A stretch of DNA of 64,000 nt from the NCBI GenBank assembly GCA_038747355.1, contig JBCDJX010000005.1, positions 5,380 through 69,379 on the forward strand, in the 5' to 3' direction. Below are positions 3 through 8,540 of this stretch, one piece after another. The translations under genes were made by a program, and so were the position numbers. Numbering within the stretch: position 1 is the stretch's first letter; the number at the start of each line of letters is the position of its first letter. A model generated the notes under the pieces. The model was not told the origin of the DNA, ran no database searches, and saw only the letters and a list, made by a program, of their open reading frames with translations. Origin of the DNA: Pseudomonadota bacterium. GTDB taxonomy: Bacteria; Pseudomonadota; Gammaproteobacteria; Steroidobacterales; Woeseiaceae.

Positions 3-1232
3 CTGATGGCCACCCTGGGTGAGGTGTACAACGAACTCGGTGAGTTCGAAGCGGCCGACGCGCTGCTCAGTGACGCGGTCAACGTGCATCGAGGCCTGGC
101 AGACAGCGAACCGCTTGCGCTTGCGCACTCGATCTTCGCGCACAGCAAATACTTCCAGGCGCAAGGCGAGCGACAAACCGCGATCGACATGCAGAACGAA
201 GCCATCGCCCTCATCAGCGTGTTGCCCTCACGCGATGCCGAGGAGTTAAACGCGTCACTGCTGAACGCCCAGGGGATCAATTACAGCACCCTGAACCAGT
301 GGGAGGAATCCGAAGGTAAATACCTCGAGGCGATTCGTGTGCATGAGGTGCTCTACGGCAAGGATCATCTGGAGACATCGGTACCGAGAGCAAACTACGG
401 CCTGATGCTGGCCAAGGTTGCACGATTCGATGAGGCCATCCCGCTGCTGGAGACGACCTACCAGGTCGCGATGGACGAGCTCGGTCCATACCACCCGTGG
501 ATTGCGCCGCGTGCGATCAATCTTGCCAGCGCGTACCGGCGTATCGGGCGCGACGAAGACGCTGAGCGCCTCTATCGCATTGCGCTGGACCAGGATCGAA
601 AGTTGTACGGTGAGAAACACCACAACGTGGCCTCCAGCCTGGTCAGCCTGGCTCGCTTCATTCGCGGCAAAGGCAGGCGCGACGAGAGCATCGAGATGGC
701 TGAGGAGGCCCTTGAGATTGAGAAGGCGAGCCTTGGTGAAGACCATGTCTACACGGCCGAGACCAGCACCGTGCTGGCCAACTGGTATATCACCGCACGC
801 AGACTGGAGGCGGCGGATGCGCTGCTGCAGGTCGCCGAACCGATCCTGGTCGAAAAACTCGGCGACCACCTGTTTACCGGTAACTTGGTCCTGGCCAAGT
901 CCCGGCTCGCGTACCATAGCGGCGATATTCAGGGCCACATCGCGCTGTCGCACCAGGCGATCGGCGTGTACGAACGTGCCTTCGATGGCAAATCCGAACG
1001 GCTGCTGCAGCCGTGGATCTGGATTGGTAACGCGTATAACGAATTGGGCGACACGACCCGGGCCGCGGATGCCTACGGCACCGGTATCGCGTCGGCCAGG
1101 CAGGTCAACCAGGAGGATGCCGGATTGTACGAACGACACGCTGAATTGCTGGAAGCCGACGGACGCCCGGATGAGGCGGCGACGGCGCGTGCGCGCGCCG
1201 CGGAATTACGCGGCGAGTCGTCGCCGGACTGA
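3..1232 (+). CDS. TPR-repeat protein (TPR_12 / kinesin-light-chain-like repeats). The 5' end is cut by the window edge; probably the C-terminal part of a larger, possibly kinase-type, protein
   Basis: The frame is open from base 3 with no upstream stop; TGA at 1230-1232. It contains repeated ~42-aa helical units, e.g. INLASAYRRIGRDEDAERLYRIALDQDRKLYGEKHHNVASSLVSLA and EMAEEALEIEKASLGEDHVYTAETSTVLANWY. Confidence 0.85.
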   Translation: MMATLGEVYNELGEFEAADALLSDAVNVHRGLADSEPLALAHSIFAHSKYFQAQGERQTAIDMQNEAIALISVLPSRDAEELNASLLNAQGINYSTLNQWEESEGKYLEAIRVHEVLYGKDHLETSVPRANYGLMLAKVARFDEAIPLLETTYQVAMDELGPYHPWIAPRAINLASAYRRIGRDEDAERLYRIALDQDRKLYGEKHHNVASSLVSLARFIRGKGRRDESIEMAEEALEIEKASLGEDHVYTAETSTVLANWYITARRLEAADALLQVAEPILVEKLGDHLFTGNLVLAKSRLAYHSGDIQGHIALSHQAIGVYERAFDGKSERLLQPWIWIGNAYNELGDTTRAADAYGTGIASARQVNQEDAGLYERHAELLEADGRPDEAATARARAAELRGESSPD

Positions 1233-1241
1233 GGGCGCTCG

Positions 1242-1796
1242 ATGGCAGGAGAGATCACCCGCCTGCTGGCGGCACACAGGGACGGCGACGGCGCCGCGCT
1301 GGACCAGTTGACCGAGTCGTTGTACCCGGAGCTCAAGCGACTGGCCGCGAGCCGCTCCCGCAACAGCGCTGAAATCGGTGCGACCACGCTGGTGGGCGAG
1401 ACCTTCATACGCCTGCTGTCGGGCGGCGCGCTGACGCCCGAGGATCGCGGCCAGTTTTTTGCACTCGCGGCTACGATCATGCGTCGTATCGTCGTCGATG
1501 AAATTCGCCACGTCCTGGCGAACAAGCGTGCGCATACCGACACGACCTTTACCGACTCTGTGCTTGGCGACGACGCGCACGAAAAGGCCGAGTTCCTGCT
1601 GCAGGTTGACCAGGTGCTGGGCCAGCTTGAGGCGGCCGACGAACGCCTCGCCCGCGTGTTCGAGTGCCGTTACTTTGCCGGGTTAACCACCGAAGAGACC
1701 GCGGAGGCGACCGGTGTCTCCTCGAGAACGGTCGAGCGACTCTGGTCCGAATCGCGCAAACGCGTCGCTTCGATGATCGACGAGAGCCAGTCGTAA
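1242..1796 (+). CDS. ECF-type RNA polymerase sigma factor (Sigma70_ECF / TIGR02999-like, the kinase/TPR-associated type with no adjacent anti-sigma)
   Basis: The ATG lies 10 nt after the TPR gene stop. The N-terminus GEITRLLAAHRDGDGAALDQLTESLYPELKRLAA and the region-4 HTH YFAGLTTEETAEATGVSSRTVERLWSESRKRV are typical of this ECF family. Confidence 0.85.
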   Translation: MAGEITRLLAAHRDGDGAALDQLTESLYPELKRLAASRSRNSAEIGATTLVGETFIRLLSGGALTPEDRGQFFALAATIMRRIVVDEIRHVLANKRAHTDTTFTDSVLGDDAHEKAEFLLQVDQVLGQLEAADERLARVFECRYFAGLTTEETAEATGVSSRTVERLWSESRKRVASMIDESQS

Positions 1797-1875: not shown

Positions 1876-3165
1876 TCAAAACACGTGCTCGATTGACACG
1901 GTGATCCGGTCACGCCCGTCGAACTGGCCAAACACACCCAGGCGAGTGCCGCTGAATCGATTGACGCTGGTTCGGATCGTCGTGCTGTCGCCCAGGCTGT
2001 AGCGCAGCGTCAAGGACGTCATGCGGTCACTGTCCTGCAACGACTGATAGGCCCGCGCTTCGAGCAAAAGCGTGTCGTAGCGGAAGCTCCTGCGCACAGC
2101 GACAGTGGCGAGTCGATCGCGGGCCGGCCGTACGAGGTTGGACGGCGCGTTGCTGATTCGGTCCTCGAGGTACTGCAGGTTGACGAACACCTGGCCGGGC
2201 GCATCGATATCCATACCGACGGCGAGCCTGCGCTGATCCCGTTGCACCGTTTGCAGGCCGCGCGCGTCACGCGTGTTGAAGTGCCGATTCGGTTGCAGGC
2301 TGGCTTCTACCCGCAGGGCGAGCGGTCCCAGCGCGGTTTCAAAGCTGGCGCCTGCAAGCGATCGGCGTTCGTAATAGCGCTCAACAACCGCGTCCGAACC
2401 CAGCTGGCGTAGTCGTCCAAGGGGTTCCGGATCCATGCCGGAATAGGCGAGCAAAGACAGGTCTCCCGCGCCGAGACTGCGTGACAGGCGGATGCCAAAG
2501 CCGGAGTCGGACAGGCCGTGTCCCGGCGAGTCGGTGATGATACGAGGCGACGGCTGCTCGGGGTCGGCGCCGAAGCGAAAGCGGGGTGCCCGGAGTTCGA
2601 ACCAGGCACCCGCGTCGGGGATCACATGGCCGCTGCCGTCGAGGTTGAGCAGCCATTCGCTTCGCCAGCGTCCAACCGTCAGGTCTGCATAGGCGCCCCA
2701 CAGTGCAATGCGTGACTGGTCGAAATCATCGAGGATGAACTCCCGGAACGACTGGGGATGGGTCACGTCGAGGACCTTGATGCCGTCGAGGCGACCCCAG
2801 TTCACCCGCTGTTTGCCAAGCCGCAACAGCAGCGTGTCGCTGCGGTAGGTCAGTGTGAGTTGGCTGAGATCGATGGCTCCCGAGTCGCCCAGCAGCAGGG
2901 GGCGACTGCCCTGCGCAAAGCTGTCCCGATTCATGTCACCGGGTTCCAGCTGGTTGTCCGGATCCAGCCAAAGCCGGGTGTCGACATTCAGCGTCCAGTA
3001 GTCGTTCAGCGGCAGGTCCGCACCCGGTTCCAGCATCAGCACCGTCTGCATGGTGTCGTCGGCATCGGTGCCGTAACCCCAACTGGCGGTCAGCGGTACA
3101 GTCCACGGTGTGGCGCCGGCAGCGCCGCAAGCAAACAACAAACCGATAAACAGCGTTGTGCGCAT
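1876..3165 (-). CDS. Outer-membrane beta-barrel protein of unknown specificity, last gene of the MMPL operon
   Basis: It has the signal peptide MRTTLFIGLLFACGAAGA and an alternating amphipathic strand pattern. The C-terminal ...ITVSIEHVF ends in an aromatic residue, as OM barrels do. Its ATG overlaps the MMPL gene stop by 1 nt (TAATG on the minus strand). Confidence 0.75.
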   Translation of the reverse strand: MRTTLFIGLLFACGAAGATPWTVPLTASWGYGTDADDTMQTVLMLEPGADLPLNDYWTLNVDTRLWLDPDNQLEPGDMNRDSFAQGSRPLLLGDSGAIDLSQLTLTYRSDTLLLRLGKQRVNWGRLDGIKVLDVTHPQSFREFILDDFDQSRIALWGAYADLTVGRWRSEWLLNLDGSGHVIPDAGAWFELRAPRFRFGADPEQPSPRIITDSPGHGLSDSGFGIRLSRSLGAGDLSLLAYSGMDPEPLGRLRQLGSDAVVERYYERRSLAGASFETALGPLALRVEASLQPNRHFNTRDARGLQTVQRDQRRLAVGMDIDAPGQVFVNLQYLEDRISNAPSNLVRPARDRLATVAVRRSFRYDTLLLEARAYQSLQDSDRMTSLTLRYSLGDSTTIRTSVNRFSGTRLGVFGQFDGRDRITVSIEHVF

Positions 3166-6100
3166 TACAATGCCTCCAGTTCGCGCGGTAGTTCGCGAGT
3201 CAGCAGTTTCTGGTCGAAAAGCGACGCCGACAAAGTCGTGCTGAAATCGATATCCCGGTAGCGAAAACGGGTTTCGTGGCCGGTCTGGTGATTGGTCGCA
3301 ATGATGTCGGTGGCGGTGAGGATGCCGTCGATCTCGGCGACGCCAGCCACCGTGATTTGCTTCAGCGGGCGCGACTTGAGGTCCGTAAAACGAATCTCGA
3401 CGGGCATCCAGGTGCCCGCGTCAACCAGGGCTTCGAACGTCGAGTAGCCCAGCTCTTTTGCCAGCGAGGCCTCGATCGGCGTACCGATGATGCGATAGCG
3501 GCCGTTGCACGGTTGCGGGGCTTCCGCGAAGGAAAAGCGGAAATCGTCAACATCAAATTTCAGATCTGACTTGACGTCTTCGTAGCTGAAGTCTGTACCG
3601 AGGAACTGCGCGCCGCGATCGGACGACGGAATGCGGCGCACCTTCTGTGTCGCCGGCAAATACAGCCAGCGCGCATCGCTGCGGGAGCGCTCGGCGTAGT
3701 CGTGGCTCAGGAAGCTCATATTCCTGACCGACTTCGGCGCGAGGTAGGTGATGCGGCTACGGCGCGCCTCCTCGTCTTCCACGCGCAGGACGAGCGCCGT
3801 GCGCTGGCGTTCGCGGCCCCGACGGTTGGTCAGCGTGATGTCGATAACGCGCCGCACGGAGTCGCCGTCGTTTCTGGCCTCTACCTGCCGGGCAACATCC
3901 CGCGCGGTCAGTTCCGCGTGCGACACCGACGGTTCGATGAACACACCGAGCAGCAGAAGCAGGGTTGCCGCAGCGGGTCGAACCGAGCTCTGTTGCAGAC
4001 GATCGCGCAGCGACATCAGGACCGGCACAAAAATGACCGCCGCCGCGTAGCTCGCCAGCGTGGCCACGGCGATCAGCCCGCCAAACCGCTGCAGCGTTGG
4101 CAGGTCGCTGAACAGCAACACCGAGAAACCAACACCGAGCGCTGCCGAGTTGAAGCCGCAGGCGCGGGCGGTGGCGGGCAACGCTCGTCGCGTGGCAACG
4201 AACGTGCTGCTGCCGTGTCGGCGCATCTCGGCCTGCAACTTTTCGACCAGGTGAATTGCGAAGTCGACGCCAACGCCGAGAGCAATGGCTGCAAACATCG
4301 ACGTTGCCGGTTCGAGGTAGATACCCAGTGCACCCATGACCGCGTACAGACACAGCACAGCAAAACTGACCGGCACGACCGAAATGATGCCCAGCCACAG
4401 TGATCGGAAGCACACAGCAGCAGCGACAAGCACAAGCAACAGCGAGAGTCCGACGCCGGCAAAATGAGATGACTTCAGGCTTTCCATCCAGTGATAACCC
4501 ACATTCACGTTGCCGCTCAGTGTCGCGGTGAGCTCGTCACCAAAGGCGCTGTCGACGTAAGCCTGCAGGGCATGCACCGTCTCCCGGCTGTCACTGAAGT
4601 AGGGTGTATCGAGTACGCCGCGAACGAGGGCGTGCTGGTAGTCGTAGTCAATCTCGTCTTCAAGGTCGGACGGATCGCCCGAGGCCTCATACACCAGCAG
4701 ATACTGGGCAATACCGCCGGGCTGTCCCGGCAGGTCGCGGCCGGCCGTTGCGGTGGAAGGATCGATGGCTTCGTGCAGGCGGTCCAGGTAGTCGACGATG
4801 GACACGGTTTTCTGCACGTGCGGCAGTTGGTCGAAGTGCGCCTGCAGCTCAGCGATGCGCTGCATCGCTTCGGGTTCCAACAGTCCCTCGGGATTGCTGG
4901 ATTCGATCATCACGTCGAGGAACGCCGATCCGGCAAATCGCTCGTTGATCAATCCGTCGGCGATGCGGATTGGCTCGTCGGCGGCGAAGTTCTCAACCTG
5001 TGAGCGATCGATGCGCAGTTCGGCGGCGAAATGCGCCGCAAAGCCCACGGCAATGGCCAGTGCAGCAATCACGGTGCCACGGTGCAGGATACCGGTCATG
5101 GCCAGGCGCGTGGTCCAGCCGTACGACAGGTGCTGGTGTCGCGCAAAGGCCGGGCTCGGCGACGGTTTCAGCAAGGCCAGCAGCGCAGGCAGCGTGGTCA
5201 TCGACAGCAGCCAGGCCAGCAAAACCCCGACGGCAGCAAATACGGCGAACCACGTGATTGGCGGCATGATCGACACGGAGGCGATGCCGGTAAATCCGGC
5301 GATCGTCGTGACCGTCGTCAAGGTTATCGGGCGTGCCATGTCGTGCATGGCGACGAGGATGGACTCGTCCACCGCCTTGCCGGCGGCACGGTGTCGATAG
5401 TAGGCGGAAAGAATGTGGATGGAGTCTGCCACGGCGATGGCGACGATGATGACCGGCAACGCGTTGGTGATCGCGTAGTACGGAATCTGCAGCCAGGACA
5501 TCAGGCCCAAAGACCCGGCCGCTGAGCCGGCCACGACCAGCAGGGGACCCGGCACCGAGGAGAGTCGTCGGAATGCCAGGAAAATAAAGCTCAGGACGAC
5601 CAGGAAGACGAGCGGCTGTAATTTTCTTGCGTCGGTGTCGATGTAGCGACTGAGGTAACCGCTAACCGCGGCAGGACCCGCCACATGAATGGCGATGTCG
5701 TCGTCCGAATAGGTGCTGGCGATGTCGCGGATGGCGAGATAGGTATCGTCGGCGCGCTGAATCTGGTCGATCTCCGCGAGGATAATCGCTGCCGACGCAT
5801 CGGCGCTGACCAGCGTGTCGATATGCGGCGGCATCGCCTGCCAGTTCTGTCGCGAGGCGTCAAAGTCGGAAGCGCCCGGCTCGTCGACGTCAAAGTAGGG
5901 TTCGACGTAGACGATGCCGGACGCCCCGAAAATTGCGGATTCGTTCACCAGGCTGGTCACGCCGTCTGTGCGAACGTTCGGCAGGCTGGCGATGCGCTCC
6001 GACAGTTCTGTCATGAGCGTGGCGATGTCGGGGTTGAACACCGACTCACCGTTGCGGCTTTCGATGGCGATGGCCACGGGGTCGTGCAGGTCGAAAATGG

Positions 6101-6287
6101 CCTCGACGCGTTCGTCGGCGACCAGCGCCGGGTGGCCGTTTGGCATGAAGGCCTCGATGGAGGTGTCTTTGACGAGGTGTCCCAGGCCGGCGCCGGCAAT
6201 GGCTATAAGCAGCAGAGAGAAAAACAGGACCTGCCAGGGCCGGGCGATAACGCCACGGAAAAAGCGATCAAGCAGCCGGTCGGTCAT
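3165..6287 (-). CDS. MMPL/RND-superfamily exporter (COG1033-like, 12 TM) fused to a C-terminal LolA-like 'outer membrane lipoprotein-sorting' domain
   Basis: 1040 aa. There are two TM bundles with large periplasmic loops, e.g. ITLTTVTTIAGFTGIAS and GVGVDFAIHLVEK. A hydrophobic segment follows (AAATLLLLLGVFIEPSVSHA). The last ~249 aa (about nt 3168-3914) carry RWLYLPATQKVRRIPSSDRGAQFLGTDFSYEDV, which I recognise as the LolA-like sorting-protein signature. The start overlaps the thioesterase stop (ATGA). Confidence 0.85.
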   Translation of the reverse strand: MTDRLLDRFFRGVIARPWQVLFFSLLLIAIAGAGLGHLVKDTSIEAFMPNGHPALVADERVEAIFDLHDPVAIAIESRNGESVFNPDIATLMTELSERIASLPNVRTDGVTSLVNESAIFGASGIVYVEPYFDVDEPGASDFDASRQNWQAMPPHIDTLVSADASAAIILAEIDQIQRADDTYLAIRDIASTYSDDDIAIHVAGPAAVSGYLSRYIDTDARKLQPLVFLVVLSFIFLAFRRLSSVPGPLLVVAGSAAGSLGLMSWLQIPYYAITNALPVIIVAIAVADSIHILSAYYRHRAAGKAVDESILVAMHDMARPITLTTVTTIAGFTGIASVSIMPPITWFAVFAAVGVLLAWLLSMTTLPALLALLKPSPSPAFARHQHLSYGWTTRLAMTGILHRGTVIAALAIAVGFAAHFAAELRIDRSQVENFAADEPIRIADGLINERFAGSAFLDVMIESSNPEGLLEPEAMQRIAELQAHFDQLPHVQKTVSIVDYLDRLHEAIDPSTATAGRDLPGQPGGIAQYLLVYEASGDPSDLEDEIDYDYQHALVRGVLDTPYFSDSRETVHALQAYVDSAFGDELTATLSGNVNVGYHWMESLKSSHFAGVGLSLLLVLVAAAVCFRSLWLGIISVVPVSFAVLCLYAVMGALGIYLEPATSMFAAIALGVGVDFAIHLVEKLQAEMRRHGSSTFVATRRALPATARACGFNSAALGVGFSVLLFSDLPTLQRFGGLIAVATLASYAAAVIFVPVLMSLRDRLQQSSVRPAAATLLLLLGVFIEPSVSHAELTARDVARQVEARNDGDSVRRVIDITLTNRRGRERQRTALVLRVEDEEARRSRITYLAPKSVRNMSFLSHDYAERSRSDARWLYLPATQKVRRIPSSDRGAQFLGTDFSYEDVKSDLKFDVDDFRFSFAEAPQPCNGRYRIIGTPIEASLAKELGYSTFEALVDAGTWMPVEIRFTDLKSRPLKQITVAGVAEIDGILTATDIIATNHQTGHETRFRYRDIDFSTTLSASLFDQKLLTRELPRELEAL

Positions 6288-6856
6288 AGCGACACCTCGT
6301 TGATCGAGTTAACCGCTGCGCCGGAGCGATGGCCGAAACGGTACATTTCGTTTTCCAGGCGCATCCAGTCATCGACGTAGTCGGGGATGGCCGGGGATGT
6401 CGCTCCGGGAAACGTCGCCTCGGAAACGGTCTTTGTGGACACCCAGATGCCGTCTTTTCGCAGAGCCGCACGGGTGATACCCACGGCGACGCACCGGTCG
6501 CGGTCGTCGATGAAGCTGTGCTCGAGGAAAAACCAGCGCTGGTCCCAGCCGATCAGCCGGGTATTGACCGTGTAACCCTGCAGGATGCGCAGTGAATGCC
6601 GAAAGCGGACGAAGCCACCACCAAGCAGGGGCGCCCAGCGATGTTTGCGGATGGCCATCGCAATGCCGGTTTGCGACATCCATTCGGTACGCGCAACGTC
6701 CATGATCTGCAGGTACCGGCCATTGTTCATATGGCCAAAGGCATCGAGATCGTGCGGCAGGACCCTGAAGCGGCTTTCGACCGAGTCCGAAAAGTGGCGT
6801 CGTTCTGCGAACAGGCTGCCCAGCAGTACGCGGATAAGCCGAAAATAGAGGTTCAT
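6284..6856 (-). CDS. Thioesterase-like (hot-dog fold, 4HBT_2-type) protein
   Basis: The motif RFRVLPHDLDAFGHMNNGRYLQIMDVARTEW is typical of hot-dog acyl-CoA/ACP thioesterases. The stop overlaps the MMPL start, making this the first gene of a three-gene operon. Confidence 0.8.
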   Translation of the reverse strand: MNLYFRLIRVLLGSLFAERRHFSDSVESRFRVLPHDLDAFGHMNNGRYLQIMDVARTEWMSQTGIAMAIRKHRWAPLLGGGFVRFRHSLRILQGYTVNTRLIGWDQRWFFLEHSFIDDRDRCVAVGITRAALRKDGIWVSTKTVSEATFPGATSPAIPDYVDDWMRLENEMYRFGHRSGAAVNSINEVSL

Positions 6857-6982
6857 GCACGGTTCTCCCTGACGTTAATGGCCCTTTTTCAGGGGCCTCA
6901 ACATCAAGATCGGGAGAACGTGCCAAAGTCCGCCAAAAAAAGTGGCGGACCGCGGTTTTTCAGGGGGTCAGCGTCCGCAGGT

Positions 6983-7516
6983 CTACGGAACGACGGTTTG
7001 CAGTGACTTGCGCAGCTCGGCAGACCAGTACGGCGCCAGCTGTTTTGACTTCTCGCTGTGGCTCAAGCCGTCAGGAAAGTTGCGCTTGGCGAGGTCGTAC
7101 AGGTTGAAGCGGATGTGCCGGTCCTGGTCGACGACCAGCACACCGGGGGTGCTCCAGATGTTGTTCAGTTTCGCCACGTTGTCGCCGTTACGCAGCAGCG
7201 TAAAGTCGTAGCCGTTTTTCGCCATGTAGGCCACGGCATCGCCGTTGTCGTCGCGAAAGTGCACGGCCAGCACCCGTACCCGATCACCGTATTCATCCTG
7301 GATTTTCTGCAGCTCTGGCATCAGCGCCTTGCAGTACGGACACCAGGTGGCCCAGAAGAAGACAATCACCGGTTGCTCGGCGGTGGCCTCGTACAGCGAG
7401 AGGACGTCGTTTTCCGTCGTAAATAATTGCCAGTCGGGCGCGGTGCGCGGCTCATCGGCCGCGGCCAGATTAAAGGCCAGCAGGCCAAGCAGCATCAGGG
7501 AAATCAGGCGTTTCAT
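6983..7516 (-). CDS. Periplasmic TlpA/ResA-like thiol:disulfide oxidoreductase (thioredoxin fold)
   Basis: I use the internal ATG at 7516, giving MKRLISLMLLGLLAFNLAAA as a signal peptide. The ORF-track start at 7636 would add 40 non-signal residues and run through the trxA terminator. The active site is WATWCPYCKALMPEL. Confidence 0.85.
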   Translation of the reverse strand: MKRLISLMLLGLLAFNLAAADEPRTAPDWQLFTTENDVLSLYEATAEQPVIVFFWATWCPYCKALMPELQKIQDEYGDRVRVLAVHFRDDNGDAVAYMAKNGYDFTLLRNGDNVAKLNNIWSTPGVLVVDQDRHIRFNLYDLAKRNFPDGLSHSEKSKQLAPYWSAELRKSLQTVVP

Positions 7517-7583
7517 GAAGCTAATGACCTCGTGGCTCGGGGATTTATTACGGACCCCAAAACGGATTTGCGATGCAAGGCTC

Positions 7584-7626
7584 AAAAAGACCGGGCCCGA
7601 CACAGGGAGAGCAAGCGGGCCCGGTC
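7584..7626 (-). terminator. Rho-independent terminator downstream of trxA
   Basis: On the minus strand, GACCGGGCCCG (7626-7616) pairs with CGGGCCCGGTC (7599-7589) around a 16-nt loop and is followed by TTTTT (7588-7584). Confidence 0.7.
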
Positions 7627-7632
7627 CGTGAG

Positions 7633-7968
7633 TCAACCGATATGCCGGTTGATCACGTCCTCGAGTTTCGACTTCGGTTGGGCACCGATCACGGTTTCCT
7701 TGACCTCGGCGTCCTTGACCAGCATCAGCGTGGGCAGGCTGCGGATACCGAAGGCCTGGGCGGCGCGGGGGTTTTCATCGACGTTAACCTTGGCGATTGT
7801 CACCTGGCCGTTCATTTCCCGGGCCAGCTCATCGAGCGTCGGTCCAAGGATGCGGCAGGGGCCGCACCATTCTGCCCAGAAATCCACCAGCACCGGGCGA
7901 TCGGATTCCAGCACAACGCGCTCAATGTCGGCGTCGGAGACGTTGATCGGTTTCAGTTGGGCGCTCAT
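7633..7968 (-). CDS. trxA: Thioredoxin
   Basis: Contains the WCGPC active site (FWAEWCGPCRILGPTLDELA), at about 111 aa from the ATG at 7968, which is preceded by GGAGG. The start overlaps the stop of the upstream AhpD-like gene (ATGA). Confidence 0.92.
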   Translation of the reverse strand: MSAQLKPINVSDADIERVVLESDRPVLVDFWAEWCGPCRILGPTLDELAREMNGQVTIAKVNVDENPRAAQAFGIRSLPTLMLVKDAEVKETVIGAQPKSKLEDVINRHIG

Positions 7969-8540
7969 GCGACCTCCTGACCGGCCGTGTCCGCCGGCGT
8001 CCACGCATTCTTTGAGAACGCCGCATCCACCGGTGTGTCGGCAACGTGGTTGACGTAGTTGCTAATGGTTTTCAGGCTGGCAGCGAGAATCACTTCCAGG
8101 ACGTTCGCCTGTGTGAAGCCTGCTGCGTAGAACTCGGCGACGTCGTCTTCACTGGCCCAGCCACGCTTTTCGGTGATCAGCGTAGCAAAGCGGCGTAGCG
8201 ACTCGAGGCGCTCGTCAGCGATGGGCTGATCGTTACGAATGGCGTCGACGACCTCGCGCGACACCTTCTGCATGTCAGCGATGGTGGTGTGAGCGGCGAG
8301 GCAGTAGTGGCACTCGTTGAATCGACTGACGGCGAGCAGCACAACCTGCTGTTCCGTGGCCGACAGCGATGACGTTTCCAGGATCTTGCCGAGTGTCAGG
8401 TAGCCCTGTAGCGTCGCCGGCGACTCCGCCATCGTGCCGAGCAGGTTTGGCGTGAAACCGTAGGCCTTGTTGACCCCGGCCAGCAGTTCATCAGAGCCAG
8501 CCGGCGCGTTGTCCTTGTTGTAGATAACAAAGTTGTTCAT
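7965..8540 (-). CDS. Carboxymuconolactone decarboxylase (CMD) / AhpD-like alkylhydroperoxidase family protein
   Basis: The motif FNECHYCLAAHTTIA (CxxC-like redox motif of the AhpD/CMD fold) is present. Length and helical character fit the family, and the gene is translationally coupled to trxA. Confidence 0.8.
   Translation of the reverse strand: MNNFVIYNKDNAPAGSDELLAGVNKAYGFTPNLLGTMAESPATLQGYLTLGKILETSSLSATEQQVVLLAVSRFNECHYCLAAHTTIADMQKVSREVVDAIRNDQPIADERLESLRRFATLITEKRGWASEDDVAEFYAAGFTQANVLEVILAASLKTISNYVNHVADTPVDAAFSKNAWTPADTAGQEVA

Follow-up and report, generated by a model that had tools for sequence, protein, structure and literature searches.

The window analysed here, 64,000 nucleotides (nt) of contig JBCDJX010000005.1 from a Pseudomonadota bacterium of the family Woeseiaceae, carries a three-gene minus-strand operon whose middle gene encodes an inner-membrane pump and a periplasmic carrier domain in one polypeptide. 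The three open reading frames (ORFs) reported in an initial annotation are present at 6856 to 6284 (190 amino acids, aa), 6287 to 3165 (1040 aa) and 3165 to 1876 (429 aa), as are both overlaps between them. ATGA (6287-6284, read ctATGAcc) joins the stop codon of the thioesterase gene to the start of the pump gene, and TAATG (3167-3163) joins the pump stop to the start of the barrel gene; Shine-Dalgarno-like GAGG/GGAGG sequences lie ahead of the start codon at both. Start/stop overlaps of this kind are an ordinary feature of operons, and identical ones occur in the operon of a relative whose fused protein is 91% identical. Profile searches bear out the domain assignments of the initial annotation (4HBT_2, MMPL, LolA_like PF17131 and DUF1302), and its statement that the operon combines an inner-membrane pump with a periplasmic carrier and an outer-membrane barrel also holds. 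The parts of the operon, with the evidence for each, are:

6284 to 6856, minus strand: hot-dog acyl thioesterase (4HBT_2), 190 aa, from the PF13279 profile
4008 to 6287, minus strand: core of a resistance-nodulation-division (RND)/MMPL transporter, HAE3-like, residues 1-760, from Pfam, NCBIfam, hydropathy, AlphaFold2 (AF2) and Foldseek
3915 to 4007, minus strand: internal linker resembling a signal peptide, residues 761-791, from its pattern in homologues and from split orthologues
3168 to 3914, minus strand: LolA_like or TP_0789-like (PF17131) carrier domain, residues 792-1040, from Pfam, the PDB and AF2
1876 to 3165, minus strand: DUF1302-family outer-membrane beta-barrel, 429 aa, from PF06980, AF2 and Foldseek

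The middle gene matches the Pfam MMPL family at E 4.5e-33 (115 bits, cut-off 20.5) and the sterol-sensing domain at 74 bits (cut-off 22.3), and hydropathy gives 12 transmembrane (TM) helices with large periplasmic loops between TM1 and TM2 and between TM7 and TM8. Its best NCBIfam model is HAE3 (TIGR00921) at 197.7 bits, under the cut-off of 351.9; by that model the pump would be HAE3-like without being a HAE3 member. The AF2 model of the whole 1040-aa protein has a mean predicted local distance difference test score (pLDDT) of 80.9 and is confident for both pump and carrier, the pump forming two TM bundles and two alpha/beta periplasmic domains (pLDDT about 85). Four residues are invariant in 29 homologues, D288 and H291 in TM4 and D675 and H679 in TM10, and these are the putative conserved charged proton-relay residues of the RND superfamily. 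Structural comparison of the pump with Foldseek returns MmpL3/4/5, HpnN and NPC1 at E 1e-26 to 1e-20, with NPC1L1 also among the matches.

The carrier domain is recognised by PF17131, which Pfam now names TP_0789-like, at residues 843-1031 (E 1.3e-38, 132.9 bits, cut-off 30). Its closest PDB matches, 9tp6 (E 1.7e-25) and 3bk5 (E 2.8e-25), are solved PF17131 structures, and 4z48 is more distant (E 7e-13). AF2 models a confident beta-rich domain, so that profile, PDB matches and model agree on the LolA-like fold claimed for the C-terminal 249 aa. Weak partial matches to DUF1329 (PF07044; 26.6-28.8 bits) within PF17131 domains reflect the same fold superfamily but another family. Because the C-terminus of the pump is cytoplasmic, the signal-like segment that follows its tail would export the carrier domain to the periplasm, and separately encoded carrier orthologues, which have signal peptides of their own, point to the same destination. 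The periplasmic placement proposed earlier is, as a prediction, well supported. The product of the middle gene is a single polypeptide made up of an RND/MMPL lipid transporter of the proton-motive-force type, a Sec-type signal peptide in its interior and a PF17131 carrier.

The first gene product is a predicted hot-dog thioesterase, with a 4HBT_2 match at E 5.9e-24 (85.3 bits, cut-off 25.5), the catalytic-Asp motif HDLDAFGHMNNGRY (D-x-D-xx-G-H-M-N-N) at residues 46-54, and 2fuj and 1njk (YbaW) as its nearest PDB sequences. The barrel scores 30.3 bits against DUF1302 (PF06980; cut-off 23.2) over profile positions 160-380 only; its orthologues at loci L057 and L066 reach 71 and 68 bits (E 1e-19). 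It has a signal peptide (MRTTLFIGLLFACGAAGA|T) and ends in ...EHVF, with a C-terminal Phe, and AF2 builds about 20 strands (pLDDT 92.3, predicted template modelling score 0.87). Searching PDB sequences with the barrel returned nothing but weak, spurious TAL effector matches, and a fold search was used instead; in Foldseek, AlgE and OccAB1 overlap best (TM-score 0.52-0.59), and no close relative has been solved. Likeness of DUF1302 to AlgE and OccAB1 was reported in a 2026 study (PMC13499233).

Between pump and carrier lies the linker, residues 761-791, which reads RDRLQQSSVRP / AAATLLLLLGVFI / EPSVSHA and has a predicted signal peptidase I site at A791|E792; the segment quoted in the initial annotation, AAATLLLLLGVFIEPSVSHA|ELTARD, corresponds to residues 772-797. 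A basic C-terminus is expected of an RND protein where it faces the cytoplasm. The tail after TM12 is indeed basic, with three Lys/Arg in 14 residues; a hydrophobic core of 13 residues comes next, and then E-P-S-V-S-H-A|E. Among 171 non-identical fused homologues the letters of the linker are highly variable while a three-part pattern is kept: about 2.8 Lys/Arg ahead of a hydrophobic core with a median of 16 residues, and a small-x-small motif. Of these homologues, 95-99% have a (-3,-1) site after the core, compared with 18% after TM7, which served as one control. TM1 was dropped as a control for this test, as a conserved Ala/Gly-rich motif follows it and yields "sites" in 97%. Small residues occupy position -3 in 69% and position -2 in just 16%, and the predicted site lies 13-19 residues ahead of the conserved R-x-E-G motif of the mature domain, in the same register as in separately encoded carriers (15-21 residues). 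This positional pattern appears more telling of a signal peptide than the presence of a site.

The initial annotation took the fusion for an exception among usually separate genes; it proves instead to define a large conserved family, and the architecture had been noted earlier in Thalassolituus oleivorans (PMC6304351). A search with the C-terminal 261 residues, restricted to proteins of 572-1820 aa, matched 416 clusters, and nearly all of the best 120 are about 1050 aa long with MMPL and PF17131 domains. Taking one genome per species, at least 481 loci encode a relative of the fused protein; neighbourhood counts cover the best 80. These 80 come from Gammaproteobacteria (Woeseiaceae, Marinobacter, Marinomonas, Halieaceae, Cellvibrionales, Hahella, Kangiella, Microbulbifer, Thalassolituus, Endozoicomonas), Alphaproteobacteria (Henriciella, Marinicaulis, Pelagibius, Kordiimonadales) and, as a third group, Bacteroidota. 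The 91%-identical protein, exactly 1040 aa long, sits in an operon of 190/1040/429 aa on at least 24 contigs, which come from several sources. The genome of the window itself holds a full paralogous operon on contig C8 (17623-25253), with a thioesterase, a 1056-aa fused pump-carrier and a 434-aa barrel (identities: thioesterase 65%, pump 56%, carrier 43%, barrel 46%). Conservation of the gene pair goes far beyond chance. Within the order, occurrence is patchy: 6 of 81 genomes have the fused gene, and 12 more have standalone PF17131 genes.

The synteny of the three genes holds in part. The barrel gene lies directly downstream of the pump in 75 of the 80 loci, and the other five, without a barrel match, mostly stop at or just beyond the pump. 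The thioesterase gene is directly upstream of the pump in only 31, all from the clade nearest the window. Given this difference, the conserved core consists of pump, carrier and barrel. In a more distant clade, to which Thalassolituus and the Bacteroidota belong, a MarR regulator occupies position -1 (29 loci) and, in about ten loci, an alpha/beta-hydrolase occupies position +2. The general role that the initial annotation gave the thioesterase in the system does not survive: it is a clade-specific addition, tightly coupled where it is found and kept in both paralogues here.

Six loci are genuinely split, three in Bacteroidota and three in Gammaproteobacteria. They encode a pump of about 780 aa, then a LolA_like protein of 266-275 aa, then the barrel, and the LolA_like proteins start with a typical signal peptide (MKSILLVLAVVFAVNSSSIFA|QQ in one case). 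The pump and carrier genes share a frame in five of these loci, where they are 6-30 nt apart, so that loss of one stop codon gives the fused form with an internal signal peptide. Because split orthologues make the carrier from a gene that includes a signal peptide and is often in frame with the pump gene, the linker of the fused protein is the retained signal peptide of the carrier. The "fossil signal peptide" of the initial annotation thus finds a counterpart in a real N-terminal one at the homologous position. A tree of pump cores twice nests split forms within fused clades (local supports 0.87 and 0.99), and its Bacteroidota sequences group with gammaproteobacterial ones, which indicates that fused and split forms have interconverted and that the genes were transferred between phyla. 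One such grouping brings together the split Bacteroidota loci L066, L067 and L076 (Flavobacteriaceae, Cyclobacteriaceae) and the gammaproteobacterial L029 and L034 within an otherwise fused proteobacterial clade, and suggests inter-phylum transfer with either fission or repeated fusion.

The probable regulatory setting of the operon consists of a promoter motif upstream and a sigma factor gene at its other end:

6907 to 6935, minus strand: promoter motif of the extracytoplasmic function (ECF) type, conserved upstream of thioesterase genes
6928 to 6950, no strand assigned: GC-rich hairpin, from a terminator scan and the sequence
1242 to 1796, plus strand: ECF43-like sigma factor, convergent with the operon (PF07638, E 4e-34)
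3 to 1232, plus strand: C-terminal TPR part of a Ser/Thr kinase-TPR protein, partner of the sigma factor (TPR_12, E 5e-40)

The promoter, TGGCGGAC-N16-CGATCT at 6935-6907, lies 50 nt ahead of the thioesterase ATG. The motif GGCGG[GAT]-N15/16-CG[ATC][TC]CT recurs upstream of the thioesterase gene at 22 of 28 loci, at a distance of 34-72 nt from the start codon and with a spacer of exactly 16 nt in 20 of the 22. A hairpin at 6928-6950 (GTCCGCCA-loop-TGGCGGAC) resembles the terminator-like end of the upstream thioredoxin-like gene and overlaps the -35 element. It was first read as a plain terminator at the start of the operon, and this reading was revised in view of the overlap with the conserved promoter. 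Genome-wide, the strict motif occurs six times (2.3 expected): two copies precede the paralogous operons, two precede Ser/Thr kinase genes, and those on contigs C43 and C86 look like chance occurrences. Copies of TGGCGG(G/A)-N16-CG(A/T)TCT elsewhere in the genome are at C8:22723-22751 (-), C8:22865-22893 (+) and C80:16046-16074 (-), and the kinase gene preceded by the C80 copy is directly followed by an ECF sigma gene. A relaxed search of the region upstream of the kinase-sigma unit in the window revealed no motif copy, unlike on C8 and C80. This distribution suggests a small regulon that might be governed by a kinase and an ECF43-type factor.

An ECF sigma gene convergent to the barrel gene, with a kinase-TPR gene alongside, is found in the window, at the C8 copy and at 15 other loci. 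The sigma factor in the window reads IGATTLVGE where canonical ECFs have DAEDLVQE (GATT for DAED). Loss of DAED in sigma-2.2 with Thr at the phospho-position, together with a neighbouring Ser/Thr kinase, is a hallmark of ECF43, a group activated by kinases (PMC8999054, PMC13147305), and by these published criteria the protein can be classed as a predicted ECF43-like factor. The adjacent kinase-TPR protein is 824 aa long with Pkinase and TPR domains; the full gene is at C5:4137-6611, with its start outside the window, and the orthologue at locus L084 has the same domains. The C8 operon is accompanied by a convergent ECF sigma gene of its own and by a kinase gene in divergent orientation. A gene of the fatty-acid-hydroxylase family (PF04116) precedes the kinase-TPR and sigma genes (C5:3201-7175); the trio also flanks the operon in L084, and the hydroxylase may be part of the same lipid-related response.

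Read as a whole, the locus probably encodes a compact envelope transport system for a hydrophobic, most plausibly fatty-acyl-derived cargo, expressed from an ECF43-type promoter and working outward through pump, carrier and barrel. The hot-dog thioesterase, translationally coupled in this clade, probably acts in the cytoplasm to supply or edit the acyl cargo. Cleavage by signal peptidase I is probable after A791 and would leave each pump with one soluble carrier close at hand, and the neighbouring ECF43-like sigma factor, controlled by the Ser/Thr kinase, probably turns the operon on upon an envelope signal. The complete cytoplasm-to-outer-membrane export route put forward in the initial annotation is itself an inference. 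Outward transport is favoured because bacterial RND pumps export, because the data on AmeABCD, a related system of Castellaniella defragrans, point to efflux, and because a cytoplasmic thioesterase is coupled to the pump. Several points weigh against this picture. Both the cargo and the direction of transport are what we infer from the genes and their relatives. The thioesterase is missing from 49 of the 80 loci and, being absent from most, is not essential to the transport mechanism. The physiology of the relatives concerns growth on hydrophobic nutrients, which fits uptake as well as export (PMC6304351; 10.1101/2020.07.04.188060). Co-location and motif conservation are the grounds on which the sigma factor would drive the operon's promoter. 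In the linker, a composition-matched shuffle produces a (-3,-1) site in 79% of sequences compared with 95% of the real ones, a modest excess that makes the bare presence of a site weak evidence. A bolder version, in which pump and carrier are a polyprotein cut by signal peptidase I to give one soluble carrier per pump and the module is the effector of a kinase-phosphorylated ECF43 sigma factor, is somewhat less likely than not. If true, the module would be an inducible response that exports envelope lipids, with fused and split forms that have changed into one another repeatedly and passed between phyla.

The rival explanations concern the fusion, the fate of the linker, and the direction and nature of transport. 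That an assembly error or frameshift artificially joined two genes is next to inconceivable: split versions do stand in the same reading frame in some genomes, but hundreds of independent fused sequences share one length, among them the 91%-identical relative on its many contigs, and the genome has its second, fused paralogue. A frameshift does occur at L047 (5944-9130, a Woeseiaceae metagenome-assembled genome), where it splits the fused gene into ORFs of 713 and 389 aa and is probably an assembly error or a mark of a pseudogene. More finely balanced is whether the linker stays uncut, as a 13th membrane-spanning signal anchor that tethers the carrier by the periplasmic domains of the pump as a lid or hand-off station. 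The median core of 16 residues in homologues is near the 18 of true TM helices, the cleavage motif only modestly exceeds its composition-matched expectation, a fusion makes most sense if the physical link is retained, and a DUF1329-BNR-RND complex has been predicted with Foldy (PMC10866462). The core in the window protein, on the other hand, has only 13 residues before E-P-S-V-S-H-A, which makes cleavage at least as likely as tethering, and AF2 renders residues 764-793 as a low-confidence coil (pLDDT < 50) with no helix packed on the TM bundle. The stable 13th TM helix of the initial annotation is not upheld by these features. In addition, split orthologues yield a free soluble carrier, small residues at -3 and not at -2 are the pattern of cleaved signal peptides, and, judging from the dimensions of the periplasm, a short link would fall short of the outer-membrane barrel. 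The tether has somewhat less than even prospects, and on balance signal peptidase I would cut after S-H-A. A parallel is the cytochrome b-c1 polyprotein FbcH of Bradyrhizobium, which likewise joins a polytopic membrane protein to a periplasm-facing partner in one polypeptide, the two being separated at an internal signal peptide. FbcH belongs to a respiratory complex and is no transporter, and its cleavage has been demonstrated, whereas cleavage here is predicted only.

The same machinery might also run inward, the barrel admitting hydrophobic nutrients such as long-chain alkanes or fatty esters and the carrier taking them through the periplasm to the RND protein, from which they would enter the inner membrane, much as sterol passes from NPC2 to NPC1. 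Uptake is a serious rival because relatives are induced or required on hydrophobic substrates: in T. oleivorans MIL-1 the fused TOL_3187 is up 42-fold on n-C28 and the adjacent "porin" TOL_3188 was detected only on n-C28 (PMC6304351), and growth of Pseudomonas putida on Tween 20 and butyl stearate requires split DUF1302/DUF1329/BNR/RND genes (10.1101/2020.07.04.188060). It also draws on NPC1 and NPC1L1 among the structural matches of the pump, on the many host taxa that are marine hydrocarbon or lipid degraders, and on the alpha/beta-hydrolase downstream in some loci. Uptake is nonetheless judged unlikely, since every characterised bacterial RND transporter exports, deletion of AmeABCD lowered tolerance and raised Nile Red accumulation, as expected of lost efflux (PMC6394551), a pump-coupled cytoplasmic thioesterase suits the supply of cargo more than uptake, and split forms in Bacteroidetes respond to iron limitation and not to hydrophobic nutrients (PMC10434189). 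Very improbable is that the locus sorts lipoproteins or outer-membrane proteins, as the database name and Gregson et al. propose, the latter with TOL_3187 carrying the porin TOL_3188 (PMC6304351). The C-terminal domain does belong to the LolA/LolB structural superfamily, but PF17131 and LolA are separate families, Lol transport proper is powered by the LolCDE ATP-binding cassette (ABC) transporter with no RND pump, and the nearest structural relatives of the pump carry lipids. The module, patchy and accessory in its order (the 6 of 81 genomes above) and duplicated here, is also unlike a housekeeping pathway. Barrel proteins depend on Sec for export and on BAM for assembly, and the reading of TOL_3187 as a porin transporter is unlikely. 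Public annotation names RND fusions of 1040-1090 aa "outer membrane lipoprotein-sorting protein", a name taken from the C-terminal quarter only; for the 1040-aa protein it misleads and hides the transporter.

The window locus is a compact fused variant of known transport systems, with a thioesterase added. AmeABCD and the DUF1302/DUF1329/BNR (COG4447)/COG1033-RND clusters of Shewanella, Kangiella and Pseudomonas share with it an HAE3/MMPL-type RND protein, a LolA-superfamily periplasmic protein and a DUF1302 barrel, and all are proposed to carry hydrophobic compounds across the envelope. In C. defragrans, deletion of AmeABCD lowers monoterpene tolerance and dye efflux (PMC6394551). Split four-gene relatives show phenotypes on monoterpenes, Tween 20 and butyl stearate, and trans-envelope transport was proposed for them (PMC6394551; 10.1101/072470; 10.1101/2020.07.04.188060; PMC10866462). 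Their four genes are cofit (10.1101/072470), and AlphaFold-Multimer predicts DUF1302-DUF1329 and DUF1329-BNR-RND complexes (PMC13499233, PMC10866462). The differences are in composition: the carrier here is a short PF17131 domain (about 250 aa) fused through a retained signal peptide, where theirs is DUF1329 (about 450 aa); the barrel has 429 aa where theirs has about 600; the gene order here is pump then barrel; and a thioesterase and an ECF43-type promoter are attached. The genome of the window also does without the BNR/Ycf48 (COG4447) partner: PF14870 found no match above its cut-off in the whole genome and none in the operon, and for DUF1329 only the weak partial matches within PF17131 domains came up, apparently leaving the genome without a true DUF1329 protein.

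The closest match in architecture is TOL_3187/TOL_3188, likened here through the published description and a congeneric genome. It likewise combines a fused MMPL and LolA-like protein with a barrel gene next downstream, and a 36%-identical pair is present in the Thalassolituus genome at L057. TOL_3187/TOL_3188 falls in the distant clade, with MarR upstream and an alpha/beta-hydrolase downstream instead of a thioesterase. Other relatives are unfused. In oral Bacteroidetes (Porphyromonas gingivalis PG1175-81, Prevotella intermedia), operons with an MMPL gene, then a PF17131-type gene and genes for hypothetical proteins are strongly induced by iron limitation and differ in having ABC ATPases and a TetR regulator alongside (PMC10434189). 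A similar layout occurs in the genome of the window at C12:39785-45846, where a split RND pump, a PF17131 protein and a barrel are followed by ABC transporter genes. In aryl-polyene clusters (ApeK/ApeL/ApeM/ApeN), an acyl-derived lipid reaches the outer membrane through the joint work of a hot-dog thioesterase, a LolA-like carrier and an RND exporter (PMC8253772). The Ape genes lie inside a polyketide-type biosynthetic cluster, whereas the window operon has no flanking biosynthetic genes, and their outer-membrane partner is a LolB-like lipoprotein (DUF3261) with no barrel. Systems of the TP_0789/MacB type (Borrelia BBJ23-29, PMC13078400) couple a PF17131/LolA-like carrier to an inner-membrane transporter and a barrel but are energised by an ABC transporter with FtsX-type permeases and have no RND pump. 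The genome of the window has such a version at C31:12493-17573, with a PF17131 carrier, two FtsX-type permeases and a barrel-like protein in a layout resembling TP_0789/MacB.

The fused architecture (from Thalassolituus) and the kind of transport system (AmeABCD-type) were already known; the conserved ECF-type promoter of the operon and its regulatory setting are new here. Systems built from DUF1302, LolA-like and RND proteins are widespread in Proteobacteria, including Pseudomonas, and in Bacteroidetes, and give strong phenotypes on hydrophobic substrates, though their mechanism is not established. Natural fusion of carrier and pump is Rosetta-stone evidence that the two work jointly, a partnership earlier drawn from cofitness and AlphaFold-Multimer. 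The compact form, with two proteins and no BNR partner, offers a simpler biochemical system in the culturable hosts Marinobacter, Lentisalinibacter and Thalassolituus, and the conserved promoter together with the neighbouring kinase and sigma factor suggest what might switch the operon on.

Directly upstream of the operon on the same strand, at 6983-8540 (-), stands a redox trio of a TlpA/AhpC-like thioredoxin-fold protein with a signal-anchor, a thioredoxin and an AhpD/CMD-like protein, periplasmic and cytoplasmic in location. The hairpin at 6928-6950 separates the trio from the operon, and the trio is conserved in the 91%-identical relative.

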